Source: Candidatus Hodarchaeota archaeon
Lineage (GTDB): Archaea > Asgardarchaeota > Heimdallarchaeia > Hodarchaeales > Hodarchaeaceae
Reading direction: 5' to 3'
NCBI GenBank assembly: GCA_016840035.1
Contig: JAEOTC010000121.1
Coordinates: 33,962 to 97,961 of the forward strand
DNA: 64,000 bases
In this document: piece after piece, positions 22,867 through 53,241 of the stretch
How positions within the stretch are numbered: position 1 is the stretch's first letter
How the letters are laid out: every line of letters begins with the position of its first letter
The notes under the pieces: model-generated
What the model was told of the DNA's origin: nothing
Database searches by the model: none
The model's input: the letters and a program-made list of their open reading frames with translations, nothing else
Program-made: the position numbers and the translations under genes

Positions 22867-23652
22867 ATGGAGAATTCAAAGATGAACCACCACAAAATAT
22901 CTAAAACGCGGATATTCCCTGTAAATACACAGATTCTCACCTTATTTCTAGTAACTTTAGTGATAATTTCTACTATCAGGATAATTGAAGCAAAACCACA
23001 AAAAACTTCGGAAAATATATTGGACGGTGTAATCAGTCAAGATGAATATTCATATTCACAGAGTACGGAAGATGGTAAATTTATTCTTTATTGGGAACCC
23101 ACAGATGAGAATACAATATTCTTCGCAATGCAAGCATTGACAACTGGTTATATGTCAATAGGAATTAACCCTTCTCAGCGAATGAAGGATGCAGATATGT
23201 ATTTCGGGTGGGTAGACTCAAATGGTTCAGTATTCATGATAGATGCCTTTGCAGTTGATGACATGGGTACTCATCCCCCAGATACTGAATTGGGTGGTAC
23301 AAATGATATTCTGGACTATAATGGGAGTGAAAATGCACAGACTACAATTATTGAATTTAAGAGACTAATAGTATCACCTGATTCAGAATATGATAATGCT
23401 ATTCCGATGGTAGGTGAAATCCCCATTATTTGGGCGTATGGAACTTCGGATAATTTTGAAGTTCACCATGGAGTTGTTAGCCGCGGTACAATGTTCTGGA
23501 GTCTAGAAGGGGCAAGTGTATTAAGGTTTGATTTCAGTCAACCCTTTATCTTGGGGCTAGCTTTTCTGATTACTTTAACAGGATTAGTAATCTATGTGGA
23601 TAGCAAAGGTCGTCCTACCAGTAACAACGAGAAGACAAACAGTGGTGAATAG
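22867..23652 (+). CDS. signal-peptide protein with C-terminal TM anchor, first gene of oxidase operon
   Basis: N-terminal hydrophobic signal/anchor and a C-terminal helix LGLAFLITLTGLVIYV. Stop is 2 nt before the subunit III-like gene. Function unknown; possibly an electron donor or DOMON-like. Confidence 0.5.
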   Translation: MENSKMNHHKISKTRIFPVNTQILTLFLVTLVIISTIRIIEAKPQKTSENILDGVISQDEYSYSQSTEDGKFILYWEPTDENTIFFAMQALTTGYMSIGINPSQRMKDADMYFGWVDSNGSVFMIDAFAVDDMGTHPPDTELGGTNDILDYNGSENAQTTIIEFKRLIVSPDSEYDNAIPMVGEIPIIWAYGTSDNFEVHHGVVSRGTMFWSLEGASVLRFDFSQPFILGLAFLITLTGLVIYVDSKGRPTSNNEKTNSGE

Positions 23653-23654
23653 CT

Positions 23655-25100
23655 ATGGCTGAATTACATCCTATCGTTTTACATTTTCATATTGCCAATC
23701 TGGCATTGAGTATCTTTACCTTACTACTTGCAATCACTGTGTCTGCATTTGAGCGAACAGATTTTTTTAATCGAAAGCTCGTAAAAAGAACATTTCGTGG
23801 TAGGGAGCTTTTGAGTCAGCAAACTTGCAGAACGTATGCTGATAAATTTGAATTTGTAGCATTCATGTTTCTTCTTTATGGAATTGTAACTTTTTTTGTA
23901 GCAGGAGTTGCAGGTTTTCTAGATGCCTCAGGAAATATTGGGATTGGGGAAATTAATCTAGATAATCTTCTCTTAGGGATATCAGAAGCAAGTCTCAGCT
24001 CAATACTTGGTTATAAAGTTATATATTCCATTATTGGAGTCTCCTACTTCCTCTTCGCAGCGCTTATCCGCATATATTTTGCCAGTTACCGCAAAGAAAG
24101 AATTTTTTCACAACATCCATTATATTGGATAGTCCTTCTCTTAAGTCAAATTCTTGGTTACATTCTTTTAACGCTCGTTTCTGGAGCTGGAGCAATTAGA
24201 GTTTATGGTGGAACCTTAATTTCTGATATTCCAATCTTTGGGGAGTTCTTACCTAATGGATCACTGGATCCTACCCCCATCGTCCTTTTGGGTACTGTAT
24301 TAATCGTCTTCCTCATTATCATTGCTGGTTTTTCAAAGAAACCTCCAGAAATCGAACCTCCTCACGAAGGAGAGCATGAAGAACATGAAATAACTCTTTG
24401 GCCTGCAGCACTAGCATTCGGCACAGTCTTTGTTGCAGCTGCTATCATTAACTTTACTGATGGCAACGAATTAGCAGCTTTCGGTTTCTTCTGGACATTT
24501 TTTATTGTACTGATTGGTTTCATCTTTAATGAAGCATTTAAACAAGATTTGTTTAGAAGACCACGTGAAGGATGGATTTGGTTATTCCTTGGGAGTGAAG
24601 TGATTCTATTCTCTATGATAATTGGGACAAGTTTCGGTCTAAGAGTTGCGTCTGGGAGTAATTGGCCTGATCAGAGTCAGATTCTAGATATCCCTCTAAC
24701 AGCAATTAATACATTTATCTTAATAATTAGTAGTTTTACTATGGTGAAATCGGTAGATGCAATACAGCAAGGTAAACAAAAGTTATCGCGAGATTATCTT
24801 CTCGCAACTGCGGGATTGGGAACACTATTCCTTGGTATTCAACTAACAGAATATCTAGAGTTGTTTGCACATCATTTTACACCAACTACGAACCTATTTG
24901 GATCCACATTTTATGTCCAAACAGGCCTTCATGGAGCTCACGTATTCTTCGGTGTCCTTCTAGTTATCTTTACAACACTGAGAGCTCATCAAGGTGGATT
25001 TACCAAAGAAAATCACGGCAGTTTAGAGTTAGTTGGGCTCTATTGGCATTTCGTTGATCTTGTATGGATTGTATTATTTACATTAGTATATCTAATATAG
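23655..25100 (+). CDS. heme-copper oxidase subunit III-like protein, extended (481 aa)
   Basis: C-terminus LHGAHVFFGVLLVIFTTLRAH...GLYWHFVDLVWIVLF matches the conserved end of COX III/CyoC. N-terminal half carries extra helices. Confidence 0.75.
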   Translation: MAELHPIVLHFHIANLALSIFTLLLAITVSAFERTDFFNRKLVKRTFRGRELLSQQTCRTYADKFEFVAFMFLLYGIVTFFVAGVAGFLDASGNIGIGEINLDNLLLGISEASLSSILGYKVIYSIIGVSYFLFAALIRIYFASYRKERIFSQHPLYWIVLLLSQILGYILLTLVSGAGAIRVYGGTLISDIPIFGEFLPNGSLDPTPIVLLGTVLIVFLIIIAGFSKKPPEIEPPHEGEHEEHEITLWPAALAFGTVFVAAAIINFTDGNELAAFGFFWTFFIVLIGFIFNEAFKQDLFRRPREGWIWLFLGSEVILFSMIIGTSFGLRVASGSNWPDQSQILDIPLTAINTFILIISSFTMVKSVDAIQQGKQKLSRDYLLATAGLGTLFLGIQLTEYLELFAHHFTPTTNLFGSTFYVQTGLHGAHVFFGVLLVIFTTLRAHQGGFTKENHGSLELVGLYWHFVDLVWIVLFTLVYLI

Positions 25101-25132
25101 AAGAGAAATTGATTGAATGGGTGAAATAAAAA

Positions 25133-25786
25133 TTGAAAATAAAAACCAAAGTCTCGCTAGCTAGTGTACTATTTGGATTATTCTTTGCAGGACCAGTTAT
25201 TTCAGGGAGAGCTTCCACGGCTCAATCTACATATACCTCTCAGATTGAGTTTTTATTCCTCCTTGTTGTGCTGGTATCAATTTTAATTGCTTCTATAGTT
25301 TTTGGATTATTGATATACATAATAATCCGCTTTAGAGAAGGAAACACAAATACTGTAAGAAAACCGATCCAAAACGGAATGCGCTTGGAAATCGGTTGGA
25401 TAATATTCGCCACGATAATTGTAGTTTCCCTCTTTGCTGCAAGCTTACCCGCAACTAGTTCGTATTTTACAGAGCGAGATGATTATGACGAAGAAATCCG
25501 TGTTGTTGCATATCAGTATAACTTCACATTTACCAAAGAAAATGGGAATACAACAACAGGATTTGTCGAAATTGAAGTAAATAGAGTATATATGCTTAAT
25601 ATTACTTCTATCGATGTAATACATTCATTTTATGTCCATGAACTGAGTATAAAGCTTGATATGGTTCCAGGGCGTTACAATATTGTATATTTGCAAGTTC
25701 TGGTGCCGGGAACTTATGAAGTTCATTGTGCGGAATATTGTGGATTTGGACACTATATCATGGAAGCGAGGATAATCGTAAAGTAA
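25133..25786 (+). CDS. heme-copper oxidase subunit II (CuA)
   Basis: Two N-terminal helices plus a cupredoxin domain with CuA ligands H...CAEYCGFGHYIM. Apparent TTG start. Confidence 0.85.
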   Translation: MKIKTKVSLASVLFGLFFAGPVISGRASTAQSTYTSQIEFLFLLVVLVSILIASIVFGLLIYIIIRFREGNTNTVRKPIQNGMRLEIGWIIFATIIVVSLFAASLPATSSYFTERDDYDEEIRVVAYQYNFTFTKENGNTTTGFVEIEVNRVYMLNITSIDVIHSFYVHELSIKLDMVPGRYNIVYLQVLVPGTYEVHCAEYCGFGHYIMEARIIVK

Positions 25787-25802
25787 ATAAGAGGAAATTA
25801 AT

Positions 25803-27482
25803 ATGAGCTCTCACAGTAGTATAATTAAAGACGGTCAATTCAAACTTTTTCCGCTCTTTGTAGGCATTCCGTTTGCAATAATTGTATTCATAGTTTTGAA
25901 GATTTTACTTGGTTCTTTTGGTTTCATACCAGAATTAGTTTTCTTATCTATTCTTAGTTTCACAATTTATTTGTCCACTTATGATAAAATTGATTATATT
26001 AGATTAATTGGAACCACAAATCATGCTGAAATTGGTATTCTGTATATTCTTTTAGCTATCGTAAGTGTATTTATTGGAGGGACGCTAGCTATAATCATGA
26101 GAACTGAACTGGCTTTTCCGGGTGCTACACTTGTAGATTCGGAACTGTATTCAGTTATTTTTACCGCTCACGGTACAATTATGATATTTATGGTTATTTT
26201 CCCATTAGGTGCAGGTTTTGGTAATTATCTTGTTCCTAGATTAATAGGAGCACCTGATATGTATTGGCCTAGGTGGAACAACGCAGCTTTATGGCTGCTA
26301 ATCCCTTCAGGGGTTTTAATCTTTACTGCACAATCGTCTGTGGGTTGGACATTGTACACTCCTTTAAGTGCTGAACTCTGGGGTGTGGGTGTAGATATGT
26401 GGATTATAGGAGTATTACTTGCGGGTGTTTCCTCTTTAGTGTCTGCGATTAATTTCATTATGACTGTTGCTACCATGCGTAAACCTGGATTGACATGGGG
26501 GAAGCTAGATCTTTTTAGTTGGTCCATTGTAGCCACATCAATTATCCAATTATGTGCCACTCCCTTAATAACAACTGGACTCGCTCTCTTACTCTCAGAT
26601 CGTATATTGGATACAGCATTCTTCTCAGCAGTAGGATTTGGAGTAGGTTCGTTTTTATGGCAACATGTGTTCTGGAGTTATTCTCATCCTGCGGTTTATA
26701 TTATGATTCTTCCTGCGATGGGATTAACTTCCCTTATGGTTTCAAAGTTTTCTAGAAATGAAATCTTTGGATACGAGCTAATGGTAATATCTATGATGGC
26801 TATTGTCTTTCTTGGTTTCCTAGTGTGGGGTCACCATCAGTATACTCTTTATGGTGCAGCCACAGATGCGTTTACAACCACCTTGTTCTCCTTATTAACC
26901 TCATTAATAGCTGTACCTTCGGGAGTCAAAACTTTTAATTGGCTATTTACAATGTGGGGAGGTAATGTCAAGTTAGAGATCCCGATCGTGTTTCCGTTTG
27001 GTTTCATTATCGGGTTCGTCATTGGAGGAATAACTGGGGTTTGGTTGAACATTGTTCCAGTGGATATAATTGTTCATGATACAGCATTTGTGGTGGGTCA
27101 TTTTCATATGATCATTTTAGGAGGAGCACTTACTGCGCTTATTGGTGCCTTCTATAATTATTTCCCCGAAATAACTGGGAAAATGTATAATCGACCCCTT
27201 GCTTGGGTTCATTGTATCATGTGGATCATTGGTTTTTTGATAACATTTAATTCTATGATGATAGCAGGATTACATGGAATGCCTCGTAGATATTTCGATT
27301 ATTCAACATTTGGTAATGTTGATGTTCTCGCGTTTTGGAACTTTTTAGCGACCGTAGGTGCATATTTGATGTTCCTCTCTGGTGTAATCTTTGTAATCAA
27401 CATGATTTACAGCTTAAGTAAAGGTCCAGAAGCAGGCGATGATCCATTTAACCTATCACTTGATGAGGTCCCCACAGTTTAA
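25803..27482 (+). CDS. heme-copper oxidase subunit I
   Basis: WSYSHPAVYI, W..HHQYT (CuB His pair), HDTAFVVGHFHMII (heme a3/heme a His), and about 12 TM helices. Confidence 0.9.
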   Translation: MSSHSSIIKDGQFKLFPLFVGIPFAIIVFIVLKILLGSFGFIPELVFLSILSFTIYLSTYDKIDYIRLIGTTNHAEIGILYILLAIVSVFIGGTLAIIMRTELAFPGATLVDSELYSVIFTAHGTIMIFMVIFPLGAGFGNYLVPRLIGAPDMYWPRWNNAALWLLIPSGVLIFTAQSSVGWTLYTPLSAELWGVGVDMWIIGVLLAGVSSLVSAINFIMTVATMRKPGLTWGKLDLFSWSIVATSIIQLCATPLITTGLALLLSDRILDTAFFSAVGFGVGSFLWQHVFWSYSHPAVYIMILPAMGLTSLMVSKFSRNEIFGYELMVISMMAIVFLGFLVWGHHQYTLYGAATDAFTTTLFSLLTSLIAVPSGVKTFNWLFTMWGGNVKLEIPIVFPFGFIIGFVIGGITGVWLNIVPVDIIVHDTAFVVGHFHMIILGGALTALIGAFYNYFPEITGKMYNRPLAWVHCIMWIIGFLITFNSMMIAGLHGMPRRYFDYSTFGNVDVLAFWNFLATVGAYLMFLSGVIFVINMIYSLSKGPEAGDDPFNLSLDEVPTV

Positions 27483-27508
27483 TAAAGTAACCCTAGGAGA
27501 TAAAAAAG

Positions 27509-27850
27509 ATGGTAACACAAGTTGAAACACAAGATACTCATGAGTATATTAAACGGCCGTATTTCTTAGTTTTTCTAATGCTGGGGTTTTTGACGGTTCT
27601 TGAACTGAATGTTGGATTTATTTCTGATATAGCAGGAGAAGGATCAAATGTTGAGGGATTTATTAATTTAGCGCTAATTACATTAGCAATTCTCAAAGCT
27701 TATCTTGTTGCTGCATTTTTTATGGGAATTAAATATCAAGATAATCCCAAGGTGGTTTGGGGGGTAATGTTTGGGATTCCTATGTTCATAGCATTACCAG
27801 TAGTTGTAATCCCTGCCTTAGGGACAATTGTCTATCTTTGTGGAATATAA
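27509..27850 (+). CDS. small 3-TM membrane protein, possible oxidase subunit IV-like
   Basis: 113 aa, three helices, placed between subunit I and SCO1 as prokaryotic subunit IV genes are. Confidence 0.45.
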   Translation: MVTQVETQDTHEYIKRPYFLVFLMLGFLTVLELNVGFISDIAGEGSNVEGFINLALITLAILKAYLVAAFFMGIKYQDNPKVVWGVMFGIPMFIALPVVVIPALGTIVYLCGI

Positions 27851-27877
27851 TATAAAGTGTATAATCGATGTGTAGGT

Positions 27878-28546
27878 ATGGAACAAAGCACTGTAGTCGG
27901 AACAATTATAGGATTTATGATTCTAGCTGGAATTGGGTCTGCTTTCATCCTCTATCCCTTAAGTCAAAATCAAGTATTACCCGTTATTAAACCCGCACCA
28001 GAATTTAGCTTAGTAAACCAGGATAATGAAACTGTGGACTTACAGTCATTTTCAGGAAAGGTTATAATGCTGGGTTTCCTTTATACTCAATGTACTGATG
28101 ATTTATGCTCACTGATGACTCAAGATTTCAAAACACTCCAAACCTTACTTGGATCCTCATTTGGTATGGATACTATGCTTATTTGTATTTCATTAGATCC
28201 ATTATTTGATACTCCTACGGTATTAAGAAACTACGCTCTATCCAATGGGGTTAATCTAAGTGGGTGGCAATTTCTGACGGCCTATGAATTAGATACAATC
28301 CAAAAGGTTGTTGATGATTACGGAGTGTTGTCTTATGTCAATGAATTTGAGGGATTGGTAAATACAACTGAAAATAACACCACCTTCAATCTAAAGATCA
28401 GTCATGGTAATGATACTCAACCGAGTATCCTAATCCATTCTTGGGTGAGTATGCTAATAGATCAAGATCTTTTGATACGAAAGGTATATACTCGTGTAAG
28501 CTGGGTTGTGAGCGCTGCACTTGAGGATATGAGGAGTTTATTGTAA
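27878..28546 (+). CDS. SCO1/SenC-family copper chaperone (thioredoxin fold)
   Basis: N-terminal anchor, CxxxC motif YTQCTDDLC, and ISLDPLFDTPTVLRNYA as in SCO1/SenC. ORF opens with GTG at 27857. Confidence 0.7.
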   Translation: MEQSTVVGTIIGFMILAGIGSAFILYPLSQNQVLPVIKPAPEFSLVNQDNETVDLQSFSGKVIMLGFLYTQCTDDLCSLMTQDFKTLQTLLGSSFGMDTMLICISLDPLFDTPTVLRNYALSNGVNLSGWQFLTAYELDTIQKVVDDYGVLSYVNEFEGLVNTTENNTTFNLKISHGNDTQPSILIHSWVSMLIDQDLLIRKVYTRVSWVVSAALEDMRSLL

Positions 28547-31334: not shown

Positions 31335-33077
31335 TTGAAATCCTCTAAAGACCTTACAGATGAAAGTTCAGACACTGGATTGGATTTTATCCGAAAAATA
31401 GTGGAAGAAGATATAAGGAATAATAAAAATGAAGGACGAGTTCACACGCGTTTTCCTCCTGAACCAAATGGTTGGATGCATATCGGACATGCAATGGCAA
31501 TCTATCTCAGTTACAGCATTGCACAGGAATATAGTGGCCTTTTCAATTTACGCTTCGATGATACCGACCCATCAAAAGAAAGTATGGAGTATGTTGAAGC
31601 AATTAAAGAGGATATACAATGGTTAGGGGCGGATTGGGAAGATAGATTATATTTTGCATCAGATTATTTTGAAAAATTATATGATTTTGCCGTTGGGCTT
31701 ATTAAAGCTGGCAAAGCATATGTATGTGACCTAAATGTCGATGAAATTCGAGAACAAAGAGGATCTTTAACAGAACCGGGTGTTAATAGCCCCTTTAGAG
31801 ATAGATCAGTCGAGGAGAATCTTGACTTATTCAAGCGTATGCGTGAAGGTGAGTTTGAAGATGGTTCTCGAGTTTTAAGAGCAAAAGTGGATATGGCATC
31901 GCCAAACTTACTTATGCGAGATCCTATCATGTATCGGATAAAAAGAGTAAGTCATTATCGGACTGGAGATGACTGGATAATTTATCCTAGCTATGACTAT
32001 ACTCATGGAGAGTCTGATGCGATTGAAGGAATTACCCATTCTCTATGCTCACTTGAGTTTGAAACCCATAGACCATTATACGACTGGTTTGTAGATGAAC
32101 TACTAGCCATAGGTAAAATAGAACATAAACCCAGACAAATAGAGTTTTCTCGCTTAAATGTAACGTATACTATCACAAGCAAACGAAGACTATTAGAATT
32201 AGTCGACGGGGGGTACGTTTCTGGCTGGGATGATCCAAGAATGCCGATTCTTGCGGGATTGAGGAATCGTGGTTTTCCAGCAAGTGCTATTAGAATGTTC
32301 TTAGGAAAAGTGGGTGTGACTAAAAGGAAAAAGAATATTGATATGGGTCTATTAGAAGCCTGTGTGCGGGAAGAATTAGATCGTGATGCCAACCGTGTAA
32401 TGGCTGTTTTAAACCCATTAACAGTTATTCTTACCAACTATCCCGAAGGACAAGAGGAATATTTAGAAATACCTAATCATCCAAAAGATGAATCACGAGG
32501 TACTCGTAAAGTCCCGTTTTCAAAAGTCTTACTGATTGAGCGAGACGACTTTATGGAGGATCCTCCAAAGAAATTTTATCGACTAACGCTAGGTAGAGAA
32601 GTTCGATTACGAAATGCATACTTTATTAAATGTAATGATGTTGTTAAAGACAAATCCGGGAATATCGTTGAAGTTCATTGCACCTACGATCCTGAAACGA
32701 AAGGTGGATCTGCTCCTGATGGCAGAAAGGTGAGAGCTACAATTCATTGGGTGTCTAAATCGCATGCTCTTAAATCAGAAATTCGATTATACGATCGATT
32801 ATTTACCCGTGAAGACCCGATAGGGATTTCTGATTATAATCCGGACTCTTTAACGACAATTACTGGTTTTGTAGAACCTAGTGTAGGTGAAGCTGAACCT
32901 GGCACGCATTATCAATTTGAAAGACTAGGGTACTTCTTCACGAATTTACAGGAGTTCTCTAAAGACACGATTGTAATAAATCGAACCATAACGTTGCGTG
33001 ATACGTGGGCCAAAATCAAGAAACAACATTTATCAACAAGAAAGAAGGGTCAACGAAAACAAAAGAAAAAGAACTAG
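31335..33077 (+). CDS. glnS: glutaminyl-tRNA synthetase, bacterial type
   Basis: Collinear with E. coli GlnRS over the whole length as recalled from memory: [17 protein letters not shown] (HIGH), [78 protein letters not shown]. Apparent TTG start. Extra K-rich C-terminal tail. Confidence 0.9.
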
Positions 33078-33472
33078 GTTCGTGGTGTTACCTCTAGATA
33101 TACCCATTCTGTTTTTTTTCTCCAAAAAGCTAATTTGGATACTGCAATCAGAAATTTATAAAAGAGTGTTAGAGCTTCTTTCATTGTTTCAATTGCAAAT
33201 TCTTCCTCCTCCTTCGGAAGTATTTTTACTGTTACATCAATTTTTGGCCCTTTTAATTTCCCCCGCATCGTACATGGAGCAATAGTGGCATTTGAGTTAA
33301 TTTTTAATCGTTTTACTTTGTAGGAATGTATTCTAGTTGATACATACAGACGATCATTTTTCCTAACGAAGTCTACTGGAGTAGCGACTCCTTTTCCACT
33401 CTTATAATAAGTAGTTAGGCTGATTGTTCTGTGACCTGCTAAATAATCGAATAGGTGAGATTGTTGATTCAT
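33074..33472 (-). CDS. PNPOx-like FMN-binding split-barrel family protein
   Basis: [53 protein letters not shown] matches the pyridoxamine-5'-phosphate-oxidase-like pattern. Overlaps the glnS stop by 4 nt on the opposite strand. Confidence 0.55.
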
Positions 33473-33632
33473 AATGACTCAATATTCCAATTCTGTATAA
33501 CTCTTTAATTGATTTTTTCGTAATAACTAGAAAGATTCCTTTATATTTACCACTAAGACATTTTGTAACCTAAGATCGTAAGCATGACATCTATTTTGAC
33601 TGTATGAAAAATTAACTGGAAAAAAGAAGAAA

Positions 33633-33710
33633 TGGCAGCCCCATCCAGATTTGAACTGGAGTCATCAGATTCAGAGCCTGAGGTGCTAAACCAAACTACA
33701 CTATGGGGCT
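33633..33710 (-). tRNA. tRNA-Gln (anticodon CUG), CCA encoded
   Basis: Reverse complement folds as a cloverleaf. Acceptor AGCCCCA/TGGGGCT, D-stem GTGT/GCAC, anticodon stem TCAGG/TCTGA, loop CU-CUG-AA, T-arm TCCAG-TTCAAAT-CTGGA, discriminator G, then CCA. An oligo-T tract follows the 3' end. Confidence 0.85.
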
Positions 33711-33753
33711 TTTTTTTAGTGTTTTGCTTCATCTAACGTACATAAAGAATAAA

Positions 33754-33860
33754 TGGCAGCCCCGTCCAGATTCGAACTGGAGTCGAGAGGGTCAAAGCCT
33801 CTTATGATTTTAAGACTTAAGCCCAGTCCAAGCTTAAGTTAGCCTCTACACCACGGGGCT
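33754..33860 (-). tRNA. tRNA-Gln (anticodon UUG) with about 31 nt of non-canonical intron sequence, CCA encoded
   Basis: Acceptor AGCCCCG/CGGGGCT, T-arm TCCAG-TTCGAAT-CTGGA, anticodon arm AGAGG-CUUUGAC-CCTCT. 49 nt lie between position 9 and the anticodon stem where about 18 are expected, so the extra sequence is in the D-arm region and not at 37/38. Confidence 0.7.
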
Positions 33861-34115
33861 ATAGCAATTTTGTGTAAATTTTACCTTTGATTGGTTGAAA
33901 TAATGACCTCTATTTAAATATTATTTCCAGATAGGAAGAATTATGAAATTTTATGTGACTTTCGAATTATTTATTGAACTATATTTTTGTCGTAACTTCT
34001 GAGTTTTAAGTTGTTGTATTATTGTAGAGTGAGTTAATCAGTATTATCACTTGTAGAAACCTTTTTCGCATAAGAATACATAAAAGAAAATTAAGGAAGG
34101 CTTAATTTGAGAACG

Positions 34116-43496: not shown

Positions 43497-44600
43497 ATGT
43501 CAGATACACGTGAAGAATCAATTAATGCGGGAAGATTTCTCGTAGTTGGGACACAAGCTGGTGGAAAAACAGCCTTAGTTACGAAACTAGCAGCACGTAC
43601 GGATCAATCAATGAGATATGAAGAAGATTTCGGAGGAACAATCGAGACAGAATACTTACGAATATCATTCGATGAAGGAAAATTCTTCAGTTTATTGTTA
43701 CCAGTGGGAGGACAGGAAAAATGGCAAAAATTACGTGAACGATTTGGTAGTACTGCAGAAGGAATGATAGTCATATTAGATTCTTGCACTAAGAAGTTTT
43801 GGGTTAACTCTTTATCACAAGCATCTTCCATCTCTTCCTTTTTACCTTATGATAATTATCCAATTGCTGCGGTTATTACAAAACGCGATTTAAACGATGT
43901 TATTCGAAAAGAAGCTGAAAATTTCGCTCAAGCTATTATGGAGGGATTAGAACAGGCTAAGACCGCTCCAATCGTGTATTATAGTCGTGGATTTCGGATT
44001 ACCGAAAGGAAAATCCACCTCTTAAGCGATGTTCTACCATTCACAACTCTAGAACAAGTGATTGTCAATAGTCTTGAATCCAAGTATTTCTCAAACTTGG
44101 TTCCAGGTAATGCCCAACAAGGGAAAGTCCTACTTCCTGGTTTTAGTTTAGTAAATTGTCGAATTTTTAGTCGTGCATTAACTCAAGAGTTATGTACTTC
44201 TACAGGAGGGGATCAAATGCAGGTACTCAGTTTATTGAATGATATGCGTCCGAGTATGCTCGAATTAGATACGAGTTGGGTAGATTTACTCCAGAAATAC
44301 CCTAAAGCAGGTGCAGAACCTCAAGTAAATATGGCTGAATTATCAGTAGATGTAATAAAAAAGGCAATACTGAACAATCTGTTAGCCAGTGAAACTGATA
44401 TCAATAATTTTACATCAGAACTTAAAACTCTCTCTTCCAAAACTGGATGGAAAGTTAGTGGTCACGAACATCTATCAATTTTTGAGGAAGAAGGATTAGA
44501 ATCAGGGGCCGCTCTTATAAATCAGATGATGGTAGATGTAAAAGAAAGTGTACGAGTAGACAAGTTTAATCTCTTCAATCCTATTGAAGAGTTATTCTAG
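43497..44600 (+). CDS. divergent small-GTPase domain protein with about 190-aa C-terminal extension (Rag/Gtr- or Roc-like?)
   Basis: P-loop GTQAGGKTAL, switch-I Thr (GGTIETEY), G3-like LPVGGQEKW (compare DCGGQ of Rag GTPases), and G4-like ITKRDL. Confidence 0.65.
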   Translation: MSDTREESINAGRFLVVGTQAGGKTALVTKLAARTDQSMRYEEDFGGTIETEYLRISFDEGKFFSLLLPVGGQEKWQKLRERFGSTAEGMIVILDSCTKKFWVNSLSQASSISSFLPYDNYPIAAVITKRDLNDVIRKEAENFAQAIMEGLEQAKTAPIVYYSRGFRITERKIHLLSDVLPFTTLEQVIVNSLESKYFSNLVPGNAQQGKVLLPGFSLVNCRIFSRALTQELCTSTGGDQMQVLSLLNDMRPSMLELDTSWVDLLQKYPKAGAEPQVNMAELSVDVIKKAILNNLLASETDINNFTSELKTLSSKTGWKVSGHEHLSIFEEEGLESGAALINQMMVDVKESVRVDKFNLFNPIEELF

Positions 44601-52339: not shown

Positions 52340-52629
52340 CTCTAATGGGTGAGTAATATACTATGTCAATTAATTTCGAATTGACTGTATGGAGTCGGCG
52401 ATTTTATTGGGTTTTTTATTTCTATTGTAATAAATTACAGCAAATTCAGCTTCAAATTGGAAATATATATCAGCAGGAAGATCTTTGGATAATAACATAG
52501 GTTATATCAGTAATACTCAATTACAGATATGGTACTTGATAATTATATAATCCGCTCAAGAGATCATTATAAGTGAGAGGAAAAGGGTCAAACATACCTG
52601 AGGAAGAATACATCGTGTCACGAGCAAAA

Positions 52630-53241
52630 ATGGACTTTGCTGAGGGAGTATTCCGTACAAATTTCAAGGTATGTGTGATTGGTGATGGAGGAGTAGGAAA
52701 AACCGCCCTTATCCAGCATTTATTGGGGAAAGAATTTTCCAGTAATTATTTACTGACCATTGGAACTGACATTTCCACCTTTCAGCTGGAACACAATGGT
52801 AAAATACTGAGTCTCCAGCTATGGGATCTTGCGGGACAATCACGGTTTGATGTCATTCGGAATATGTATTTTAGCGGTGCACGTGCCGGCGTACTTGTAT
52901 TTGATCTTACAAGACAAAATTCGTTACAATCATTGTCAAAATGGAAGGATGAGATTTTTACATACTCTGACAGAAAAATTCCAATCCTTCTTCTCGGAAA
53001 TAAATCTGACCTTAAAGACTCTCATTTTCCCTTTCTTGAAATGGTTGAAGGATTAAAAAACGAAATCGAACAGGAATACAATATAGTTTATGAAAATAAC
53101 CAGATCACCGTTCCATTTTTTCCCACTTCAGCAAAAACTGGTGAAAACGTTATCGAAGCATTTGAAGCTTTAGGGCAGGAACTACTTACTTACCAAAAGC
53201 AATTTACAATACTACAGAAGAAATCTCAAGAAGATTCGTAA
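52630..53241 (+). CDS. Rab/Ras-like small GTPase
   Basis: G1 GDGGVGKT, Rab-like switch I YLLTIGTDI, G3 WDLAGQ, G4 GNKSDL, G5 TSAKTGENV.EAF. GTG at 52573 gives a 19-aa longer form. No C-terminal prenylation Cys. Confidence 0.85.
   Translation: MDFAEGVFRTNFKVCVIGDGGVGKTALIQHLLGKEFSSNYLLTIGTDISTFQLEHNGKILSLQLWDLAGQSRFDVIRNMYFSGARAGVLVFDLTRQNSLQSLSKWKDEIFTYSDRKIPILLLGNKSDLKDSHFPFLEMVEGLKNEIEQEYNIVYENNQITVPFFPTSAKTGENVIEAFEALGQELLTYQKQFTILQKKSQEDS

Follow-up and report, generated by a model that had tools for sequence, protein, structure and literature searches.

A bacterial-type glutaminyl-tRNA synthetase and two adjoining archaeal tRNA-Gln genes in DNA of a Hodarchaeales archaeon

How does a glutaminyl-tRNA synthetase (GlnRS, gene glnS) come to lie beside tRNA-Gln genes in archaeal DNA, and what does it mean for the way the host makes Gln-tRNA-Gln? 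The question is raised by a stretch of 64,000 nucleotides (nt) from Candidatus Hodarchaeota archaeon (contig JAEOTC010000121.1, assembly GCA_016840035.1, positions 33,962 to 97,961), the whole of which is called the window here. An earlier note, made from the sequence alone, described the locus against the general view that archaea lack GlnRS, and reviews of 2008, 2020 and 2022 do describe archaeal genomes as having none. The archaeal route, through a glutamyl-tRNA synthetase of the non-discriminating kind (ND-GluRS) and the transamidation enzyme GatDE, yields the same end product as GlnRS, whereas GlnRS aminoacylates tRNA-Gln directly as a class-I enzyme. A barrier between the two routes has been argued in reviews: archaeal tRNA-Gln, with A1-U72 and A73, evolved together with GatDE, and neither bacterial nor yeast GlnRS accepts it as a substrate. 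The features on which the question turns are as follows, in positions of the window.

31335-33077, plus strand: glnS, a bacterial-type GlnRS of 580 amino acids with a TTG start and without a YqeY domain (hidden Markov models, Pfam and phmmer).
33633-33710, minus strand: tRNA-Gln(CUG), with the CCA end encoded at 33633-33635 (ARAGORN; Rfam RF00005, 57.6 bits).
33840-33860, minus strand: 5' exon of tRNA-Gln(UUG), with the 5' strand of the acceptor stem, the 5' strand of the D-stem and the D-loop; identical to the intron-less orthologue in L083, a Hodarchaeales metagenome-assembled genome.
33808-33839, minus strand: D-loop insertion of tRNA-Gln(UUG), 27-32 nt with a 10-bp hairpin, missing from the L083 orthologue and taken as a putative non-canonical archaeal tRNA intron.
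33754-33807, minus strand: 3' exon of tRNA-Gln(UUG), with the 3' strand of the D-stem, the anticodon arm (CUUUGAC, A37), the T arm, the 3' strand of the acceptor stem, G73 and CCA.
33911-33918, minus strand: TTTAAATA, 51-58 nt upstream of the 5' end of tRNA-Gln(UUG), a possible archaeal TATA box as read from the sequence.

The product of the open reading frame (ORF) at 31335-33077 is a GlnRS by every family-defining test that can be made on sequence, and neither a glutamyl-tRNA synthetase (GluRS) nor a YqeY fusion protein. The glnS equivalog model TIGR00440 (NCBIfam) matched over its full length (1-524 of 524) with 691.1 bits against a cut-off of 425.8, and Pfam recognized PF00749 (tRNA-synt_1c, 316 bits) together with both C-terminal beta-barrel domains, PF03950 and PF20974. 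The archaeal GluRS models remained below their cut-offs (TIGR00463, 336.5 < 401.75; NF003169, 303.2 < 516), and the archaeal GluRS of M. thermautotrophicus (3AII) matched with 166 bits. By phmmer, the protein aligned from end to end with the GlnRS of E. coli (662 bits, residues 16-561 against 8-551) and of P. aeruginosa (679 bits). These two enzymes (1GTS/1QTQ and 5BNZ, respectively) have the same length and domain order as the window GlnRS at 54-55% identity (55% for E. coli), and the other solved structures scored 555 bits (T. thermophilus), 512 (D. radiodurans), 426 (human) and 384 (yeast). The earlier description of the ORF as collinear with E. coli GlnRS over the catalytic, acceptor-binding and anticodon-binding regions, and as more than merely GluRS-like, therefore holds.

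The motifs of the protein agree with this assignment. The class-I Rossmann motifs are present (HIGH at H49-H52; TSK at 281-283, aligned to MSK 268-270 of E. coli), as is L136, the residue that forms the 1-72 wedge of E. coli GlnRS. Residues R30, Y211, C229 and Q255 of the E. coli enzyme tell GlnRS from GluRS, and all four are kept in the window GlnRS (R39, Y220, C238 and Q268), together with the anticodon-reading residues R341, R402, R410 and Q517 (R354, R416, R424 and Q527). Retention is complete in the archaeal clade described below, where 50 of 50 members have R30, E34, D66, Y211, H215, C229, Q255, HIGH and the S-K of MSK, as well as R341, R402, R410, R412, Q517 and R520. The window GlnRS most likely charges both adjacent tRNA-Gln isoacceptors directly with glutamine.

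The top NCBIfam model was NF011291 (824 bits), which represents the Deinococcus-type GlnRS-YqeY fusion (2HZ7), but it matched over positions 11-577 of 769 only in a protein of 580 amino acids, and Pfam did not find PF02637 (GatB_Yqey) in the window GlnRS. The YqeY tRNA-binding domain of the fusion is thus absent here, and the D. radiodurans fusion protein is a weaker match than E. coli GlnRS. The NCBI label 'glutamine--tRNA ligase/YqeY domain fusion protein' on archaeal homologues of 555-583 amino acids (P0004-P0051) is misleading, because it was taken from the best-scoring model; these proteins lack the YqeY domain as well. A Lys/Arg-rich C-terminal tail was considered as an archaeal novelty and dropped, since bacterial relatives have the tail too.

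The ancestry of the enzyme was examined in a neighbour-joining tree of 211 sequences (536 columns, 100 bootstraps), comprising the 120 closest listed database matches, 89 full-length representatives of a 50%-identity library, and the E. coli and P. aeruginosa enzymes. The archaeal-labelled sequences form one clade (P0001-P0049 and P0051; bootstrap 97%, and 100% in a second run), called the Heimdall clade here. It is nested in a group shared with sequences from Desulfobacterales, Dehalococcoidia and Firmicutes, from which E. coli and P. aeruginosa are excluded (100%). Bacterial-type and eukaryote-type GlnRS were split with 91% support, the archaeal clade being on the bacterial side, and full-length best matches to human GlnRS confirmed the eukaryote-type group. 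The window GlnRS is 63-65% identical to its nearest bacterial relatives and about 44% identical to eukaryote-type enzymes. The phylogeny that the earlier note had called for thus nests the ORF among bacterial GlnRS, in a neighbour-joining tree without a GluRS outgroup. We conclude that a single, old transfer probably brought glnS from bacteria into an early ancestor of the Heimdallarchaeia. This group has been proposed as the closest to eukaryotes among archaea; the cytosolic GlnRS of eukaryotes (human QARS1, 4YE6; yeast Gln4, 4H3S) belongs to the same family and shares the catalytic core, but carries an appended N-terminal GatB-like domain that is absent from the window protein. In the reconstruction of Eme et al. 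(2023), COG0008 (GluRS/GlnRS) is given about 1.1 copies in most Asgard ancestors and 2.2-3.2 in the Heimdall and Hodarchaeales ancestors.

The tRNA genes differ in how readily they are recognized. The tRNA-Gln(CUG) gene begins 556 bp past the GlnRS stop codon and is called directly. The tRNA-Gln(UUG) gene at 33754-33860 was missed by default ARAGORN and by Rfam, and ARAGORN in intron mode miscalled it as Tyr; once 32 nt (33808-33839) are removed, ARAGORN calls a normal tRNA-Gln(UUG) of 75 nt. At the same syntenic position L083 has an intron-less tRNA-Gln(UUG) whose exons are identical to those of the window save for a compensatory pair at 27:43 (A-U in the window, U-A in L083). On these sequence features 33754-33860 is a real tRNA-Gln(UUG) gene, and the two tRNA-Gln genes that had been placed about 550 bp downstream on the opposite strand are both confirmed, the first by ARAGORN and Rfam and the second through its L083 orthologue and removal of the insertion.

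For the splicing of the insertion, a bulge-helix-bulge was defined as two 3-nt bulges with a 4-bp helix between them, cut after the second bulge nucleotide. Applied to the canonical intron of L102 and the D-loop introns of L147 and L149, this rule gave the splice sites that were expected. No strict hBHBh' motif that would restore an L083-like tRNA was found for the window insertion. Only a relaxed form fits (H = GGCU/AGUC, 4-nt bulge); by it the intron would be 27 nt and the D-loop 13 nt long, with exact splice sites uncertain. Other UUG orthologues are also interrupted, that of L086 in the D-loop and that of L089 in the variable/T region, and insertions at non-canonical sites are typical of archaeal tRNA genes. 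The window insertion is a putative intron that would be removed by splicing. The CCA end encoded by both window genes is absent in the CUG orthologues of L081, L083, L086, L087 and L089 and in the UUG orthologues of L081, L086, L087 and L089.

Both window tRNAs have A1-U72, G2-C71, C3-G70, G10, U35-G36-A37, G73 and an encoded CCA, which upholds the earlier reading of U35-G36-A37, G73 and A1-U72, made with no mention of the D-loop insertion. The E. coli GlnRS identity set consists of G73, A37, U35, G36, C/U34, G10, G2-C71, G3-C70, U38 and a weak 1-72 pair. When the two are compared, as had been proposed, the window tRNAs resemble bacterial cognates at G73, A37, U35, G36, C34/U34, G10 and G2-C71 and in having a weak 1-72 pair. 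However, they differ from the E. coli set at the 3-70 pair (C-G, not G-C) and at position 38 (A or C, not U), and their weak pair is A1-U72, not U1-A72. With the tRNAs of the archaeal indirect route they share A1-U72 but not the A73 and G37 that are the norm there.

To place these features among archaea, a metagenome collection was scanned for the 15-mer that starts both tRNAs, AGCCCCGTRGTGTAG; 120 loci were returned, in which 82 archaeal-type tRNA-Gln genes were parsed. Position 73 was A in 72 of them, G in 9 and U in 1, in agreement with the A73 given for archaeal tRNA-Gln in the literature. Position 37 was G in 72 and A in 4 of the 76 genes with a parsed anticodon loop. A GlnRS gene was found in the same locus for 5/9 of the G73 genes versus 1/72 of the A73 genes (Fisher p = 3e-5); the switch to G73 thus goes together with the presence of GlnRS.

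Five GlnRS genes from the metagenomes fall in a second, abundant archaeal clade (P0272-P0390; L116, L135, L144, L170 and L186). At >=79% identity this clade comprises more than 120 database clusters, and one of them bears the name Thermoplasmatota. These Thermoplasmatota-type enzymes are 59% identical to the window protein and about 70% identical to bacterial ones. They are monophyletic (100%), and since their joint monophyly with the Heimdall clade received a bootstrap of only 2%, they are treated as an independent acquisition. The tRNA-Gln(CUG) beside each of these GlnRS genes has A1-U72, C3-G70 and G73, but G37. The two clades have in common a bacterial-type GlnRS that lies beside an archaeal G73 tRNA-Gln(CUG) and has lost Asp235, and they differ at position 37 of the tRNA (G37 vs. 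A37). A further locus hints at a third type (L121:1546-3624, on a contig of low GC content, 0.35): its GlnRS is 55% identical to the window protein and about 62% to bacteria, and downstream on the same strand come a tRNA-Gln(UUG), a tRNA-like gene of aberrant form, with an A1.G72 mismatch and an irregular anticodon loop, and a tRNA-Gln(CUG) with G73.

The loss of Asp235 bears on how these enzymes may have come to fit archaeal tRNAs. Asp235 of E. coli GlnRS contacts the G3:C70 pair, which is a specificity detail and not a family-defining one, and D235N is the classic mutant of relaxed acceptor-stem specificity; in our alignment the D235N variant of PDB entry 1QRS shows N at this position. The window GlnRS, unlike E. 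coli GlnRS, has an archaeal host and a threonine, T244, in place of Asp235. E. coli residue numbers were mapped onto an alignment of the 70 nearest bacterial, 50 Heimdall clade and 20 Thermoplasmatota clade sequences, with the following counts.

Asp235 position: D in 62 of the 70 nearest bacteria; T in 32, N in 9, S in 1 and D in 7 of the Heimdall clade (50); N in all 20 of the Thermoplasmatota clade.
Arg130 position: R in 64 of the 70 nearest bacteria; K in 36, R in 7, T in 5 and S in 2 of the Heimdall clade (50); S in 16 and T in 4 of the Thermoplasmatota clade (20).

Arg130 is kept in the window protein but is K, T or S in most of its clade, and Asp235 is absent from 8/70 of the nearest bacterial enzymes as well. 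Because both archaeal clades pair with C3-G70 tRNAs, loss of the aspartate is the adjustment that would be expected on the side of the enzyme. The loss appears to be convergent in two independent archaeal GlnRS clades and points to co-evolution, not co-acquisition; the substitutions in enzyme and tRNA may well be adaptive.

Linkage of glnS with both tRNA-Gln(CUG) and tRNA-Gln(UUG) was observed in the window, L081, L083, L086, L087, L088 and L089. Of 7 distinct Heimdallarchaeia loci 6 repeat the linkage, the exception being L082. The order is glnS, tRNA-Gln(CUG), tRNA-Gln(UUG), with the tRNAs on the opposite strand. The pair lies 60-400 bp from glnS in L081 (a closed Heimdallarchaeum genome), L086 and L089, is separated from it by one gene in the window and L083, and lies 1.3-2.8 kb away in L088 and L087. 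In all of these loci the linked tRNAs have A1-U72, C3-G70, A37 and G73. The grouping of a synthetase with both of its cognate isoacceptors, pointed out before in the window alone, is therefore a recurrent arrangement.

On the bacterial side, the matches listed in a scan of genome contigs with the GlnRS protein were all bacterial (57-62% identity) and served as donor-side controls. In the closest bacterial relatives (L001, L009 and L047) glnS has a tRNA-Gln(CUG) directly downstream of it, encoded on the other strand, and a tRNA-Gln was found within 6 kb of glnS in about 10 of the 60 bacterial loci listed, the CUG isoacceptor every time. Examples are L001:7796-7869, L009:7809-7882, L047:1929-2002 and L055:3398-3471, among others, mostly on the opposite strand; this adjacency is far above chance in Desulfobacterales, Syntrophales, Anaerolineales and Bacteroidota. 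The bacterial glnS-adjacent tRNAs, with U1-A72, G3-C70 and a bacterial D arm, are unlike the archaeal ones throughout their sequence, and for that reason the archaeal tRNAs appear to be native genes that were retuned, not imports. Of the 'co-acquired or co-evolving' module put forward in the earlier note, co-acquisition is therefore not supported, whereas co-evolution is supported by the changes A73 to G73 and G37 to A37 in the tRNAs and by the loss of Asp235 and Arg130 in the enzyme.

These observations suggest the following explanation. An ancestor of Heimdallarchaeia would have gained a bacterial glnS by horizontal transfer and passed it on vertically since. Its tRNAs would have retained the archaeal acceptor stem (A1-U72, C3-G70) while changing A73 to G73 and G to A at position 37, both of which belong to the bacterial GlnRS identity set, and the enzyme would have given up Asp235, which in E. 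coli reads G3:C70, together with Arg130 in most clade members. The weak A1-U72 pair could still be opened as GlnRS needs; it is also an identity element of GatDE, and therefore direct charging probably runs parallel to the ND-GluRS/GatDE route and does not replace it. We hold this explanation as a whole, with two-sided tuning of a bacterial glnS and native tRNA-Gln and a GatDE route alongside, to be likely. Several points weigh against it. The trees are neighbour-joining trees on corrected p-distances, without a GluRS outgroup and with sampling driven by similarity to the query. Loss of Asp235 is not obligatory, since 7/50 members of the Heimdall clade still have it, and A37 is not required in general, since Thermoplasmatota-type GlnRS pairs with G37 tRNAs. 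In L168:1-1157, on a contig of 348 kb and 55% GC, an A73/G37 tRNA-Gln(CUG) lies about 1 kb from an N-terminal GlnRS fragment of 39 amino acids, the sole exception to the association of G73 with GlnRS. Finally, GatDE in the relatives rests on the marker summary of one paper, and the Heimdallarchaeum case is implicit there, with no gene listing (Wu et al. 2022).

The earlier proposal also had a conditional part, in which GlnRS might replace transamidation if GatDE is absent elsewhere in the genome. In its full form, GlnRS took over entirely, gatD and gatE were lost and the archaeal GluRS turned discriminating. Such a history could be read from the window itself, in which gatD and gatE were not found and both isoacceptors show the full switch to G73 and A37. 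However, GatD and GatE have been treated as archaeal single-copy markers, and two closed Heimdallarchaeum genomes that encode GlnRS (L081 and L082) are reported with verified complete marker coverage, and the Gerdarchaeote AC18 with GatD/GatE duplicated together with its Glu/Gln-tRNA-synthetase domains (Wu et al. 2022). GatDE has been reported to recognise A1-U72 and the D-loop, and every GlnRS-linked tRNA-Gln retains A1-U72. That G73 is compatible with a GatDE genome follows from L094, where 5.6 kb separate a G73 tRNA-Gln from a bona fide gatD-gatE operon (L094:5799-8245; NCBIfam, 560 and 487 bits); the tRNA gene (L094:78-200) is a tRNA-Gln(CUG) with a long anticodon-loop intron. A third tRNA-Gln(UUG) in L088 (16503-16578, minus strand), 3.3 kb from the G73 pair, combines A73 and G37, the ancestral states, with an unusual C33. 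As the only A73/G37 tRNA-Gln of that locus it could be a decaying relic, as full replacement would have it, or a substrate of the GatDE route. COG0252, in which gatD and asparaginases are merged, has about 3 copies in the Hodarchaeales ancestor as reconstructed by Eme et al. (2023), which speaks against replacement without being decisive. With relatives reported to have GatD/GatE, we consider full replacement unlikely; the direct route was probably added to the indirect one, and GatDE is probably present in this genome also. A more specific proposal, that Heimdallarchaeia run two routes to Gln-tRNA-Gln in one cell, with GlnRS acting on G73/A37 tRNAs and ND-GluRS/GatDE on the same tRNAs, by way of their A1-U72 pair, or on a separate A73/G37 tRNA such as that of L088, we offer tentatively.

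The origin of the linkage, the status of the UUG gene and the reality of the locus admit other readings as well. A bacterial glnS-tRNA-Gln(CUG) cassette might have moved as a unit, its tRNA then being overwritten by native genes or the cassette having integrated at them. The layout in L001, L009 and L047 is the same as that in L081, L086 and L089, and the frequency of the CUG neighbour in the bacterial loci listed favors such a transfer. However, the archaeal and bacterial tRNAs differ throughout the acceptor, D and anticodon stems, and three sequence-distinct GlnRS types (Heimdall and Thermoplasmatota by tree, L121 by similarity only) each adjoin archaeal-type tRNA-Gln. Repeated selection for linkage, or integration targeted to tRNA genes, fits at least as well as descent from a bacterial cassette, which we therefore doubt. 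The interrupted tRNA-Gln(UUG) gene might be a pseudogene that leaves tRNA-Gln(CUG) as the only functional gene here, given its rejection by default tRNA finders and the lack of a strict hBHBh' motif at splice sites that would restore an L083-like D-loop. Yet its exons are intact with a compensatory 27:43 change, it is the sole UUG isoacceptor seen within the window, and its insertion folds into a clean 10-bp hairpin. Non-canonical insertions also occur in L086, L089 and many metagenomic archaeal tRNA-Gln genes, and a relaxed motif without the outer helix was found for the D-loop cases L147 and L149, so that loss of function is improbable. Least credible, to the point of being negligible, is an artefact, be it a contig of bacterial or chimeric origin or an archaeal ND-GluRS called wrongly. 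It is true that the closest non-archaeal homologues of the window GlnRS are bacterial (62-65% identity) and that one 'Nitrosopumilus' GlnRS contig (L075) is probably misbinned. Against this, the protein stays under the cut-offs of the GluRS models and has the Gln-specific C229/Q255 pair, the tRNAs beside the gene are archaeal, the neighbouring genes are of Asgard type, and synteny is kept in several independent assemblies and two closed genomes. GC content is about 0.35 and uniform across the window, including the GlnRS gene, and so does not point to recent import. The window is Asgard DNA of Hodarchaeales type and contamination is excluded, because of its Ras-family GTPases, its cox/DOMON/SCO1 cluster, the names of its homologues and its collinearity with L083; the genome is archaeal, as the earlier note had supposed. 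The closest GlnRS homologues listed, at 65-82% identity, bear the names Hodarchaeales, Hodarchaeota, Heimdallarchaeota or Promethearchaeota, and two of them lie on closed chromosomes of 4.94 and 3.16 Mb. As for L075 (CAXQPB010000155.1, labelled Nitrosopumilus sp.), it has 63% GC and a bacterial-type tRNA-Glu, and is probably a bacterial contig and not a case of thaumarchaeal GlnRS.

If the tentative proposal of two routes in one cell is true, Heimdallarchaeia would be a living intermediate between transamidation and direct glutaminylation. Eukaryotes completed the same switch in the cytosol, and in archaea it has been argued to be blocked by tRNA-Gln identity. At this locus the barrier to GlnRS appears to have been crossed in nature, by a path that may have comprised G73, A37 and loss of the aspartate that reads G3:C70; the G73 change and the loss of Asp235 occurred again in another archaeal clade, independent of the first. 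The locus thereby gives a defined set of mutations for aminoacylation kinetics. It would also be an instance of a core function of translation taken over by a bacterial enzyme in the lineage nearest to eukaryotes, for which a comparable case is the bacterial-type CCA-adding enzymes of Heimdallarchaeia (2026 preprint). No analysis of archaeal GlnRS or of its tRNA identity came up in our literature search, the sole mention being of GlnRS as a neighbour of cox genes (bioRxiv 10.1101/2024.07.04.601786). The sequences are already public and named GlnRS, so that the novelty is one of interpretation: a familiar enzyme in a domain where it was not expected, and a legible trace of how enzyme and tRNA identity came to fit each other.

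The remaining features of the window concern the neighbourhood of glnS and the nature of the host.

22867-28546, plus strand: cluster of DOMON, long COX3, COX2, COX1, COX4 and SCO1 genes upstream of glnS (Pfam).
33074-33472, minus strand: PNPOx-like ORF of 132 amino acids between glnS and the tRNA pair (Pfam PF01243).
43497-44600: Ras/Arf-family small GTPase of 367 amino acids, with the GTPase domain N-terminal.
52573-53241: second Ras/Arf-family small GTPase.

The gene order of the cox/DOMON/SCO1 cluster is the same in L083-L085, where a PNPOx-like gene also occupies the equivalent place, and synteny is thus conserved in Hodarchaeales. In L083 collinearity extends through the cox cluster, GlnRS, the PNPOx-like gene, the two tRNAs and a rhodanese/MBL gene and beyond. 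In Hodarchaeales and Kariarchaeaceae, GlnRS has been named among the genes that consistently adjoin coxABC (bioRxiv 10.1101/2024.07.04.601786), and among our loci the cox linkage of glnS is restricted to those of Hodarchaeales type. The window also encodes an MMPL protein and two-component kinases, and its Ras/Arf-family small GTPases are typical Asgard 'eukaryotic signature' proteins.

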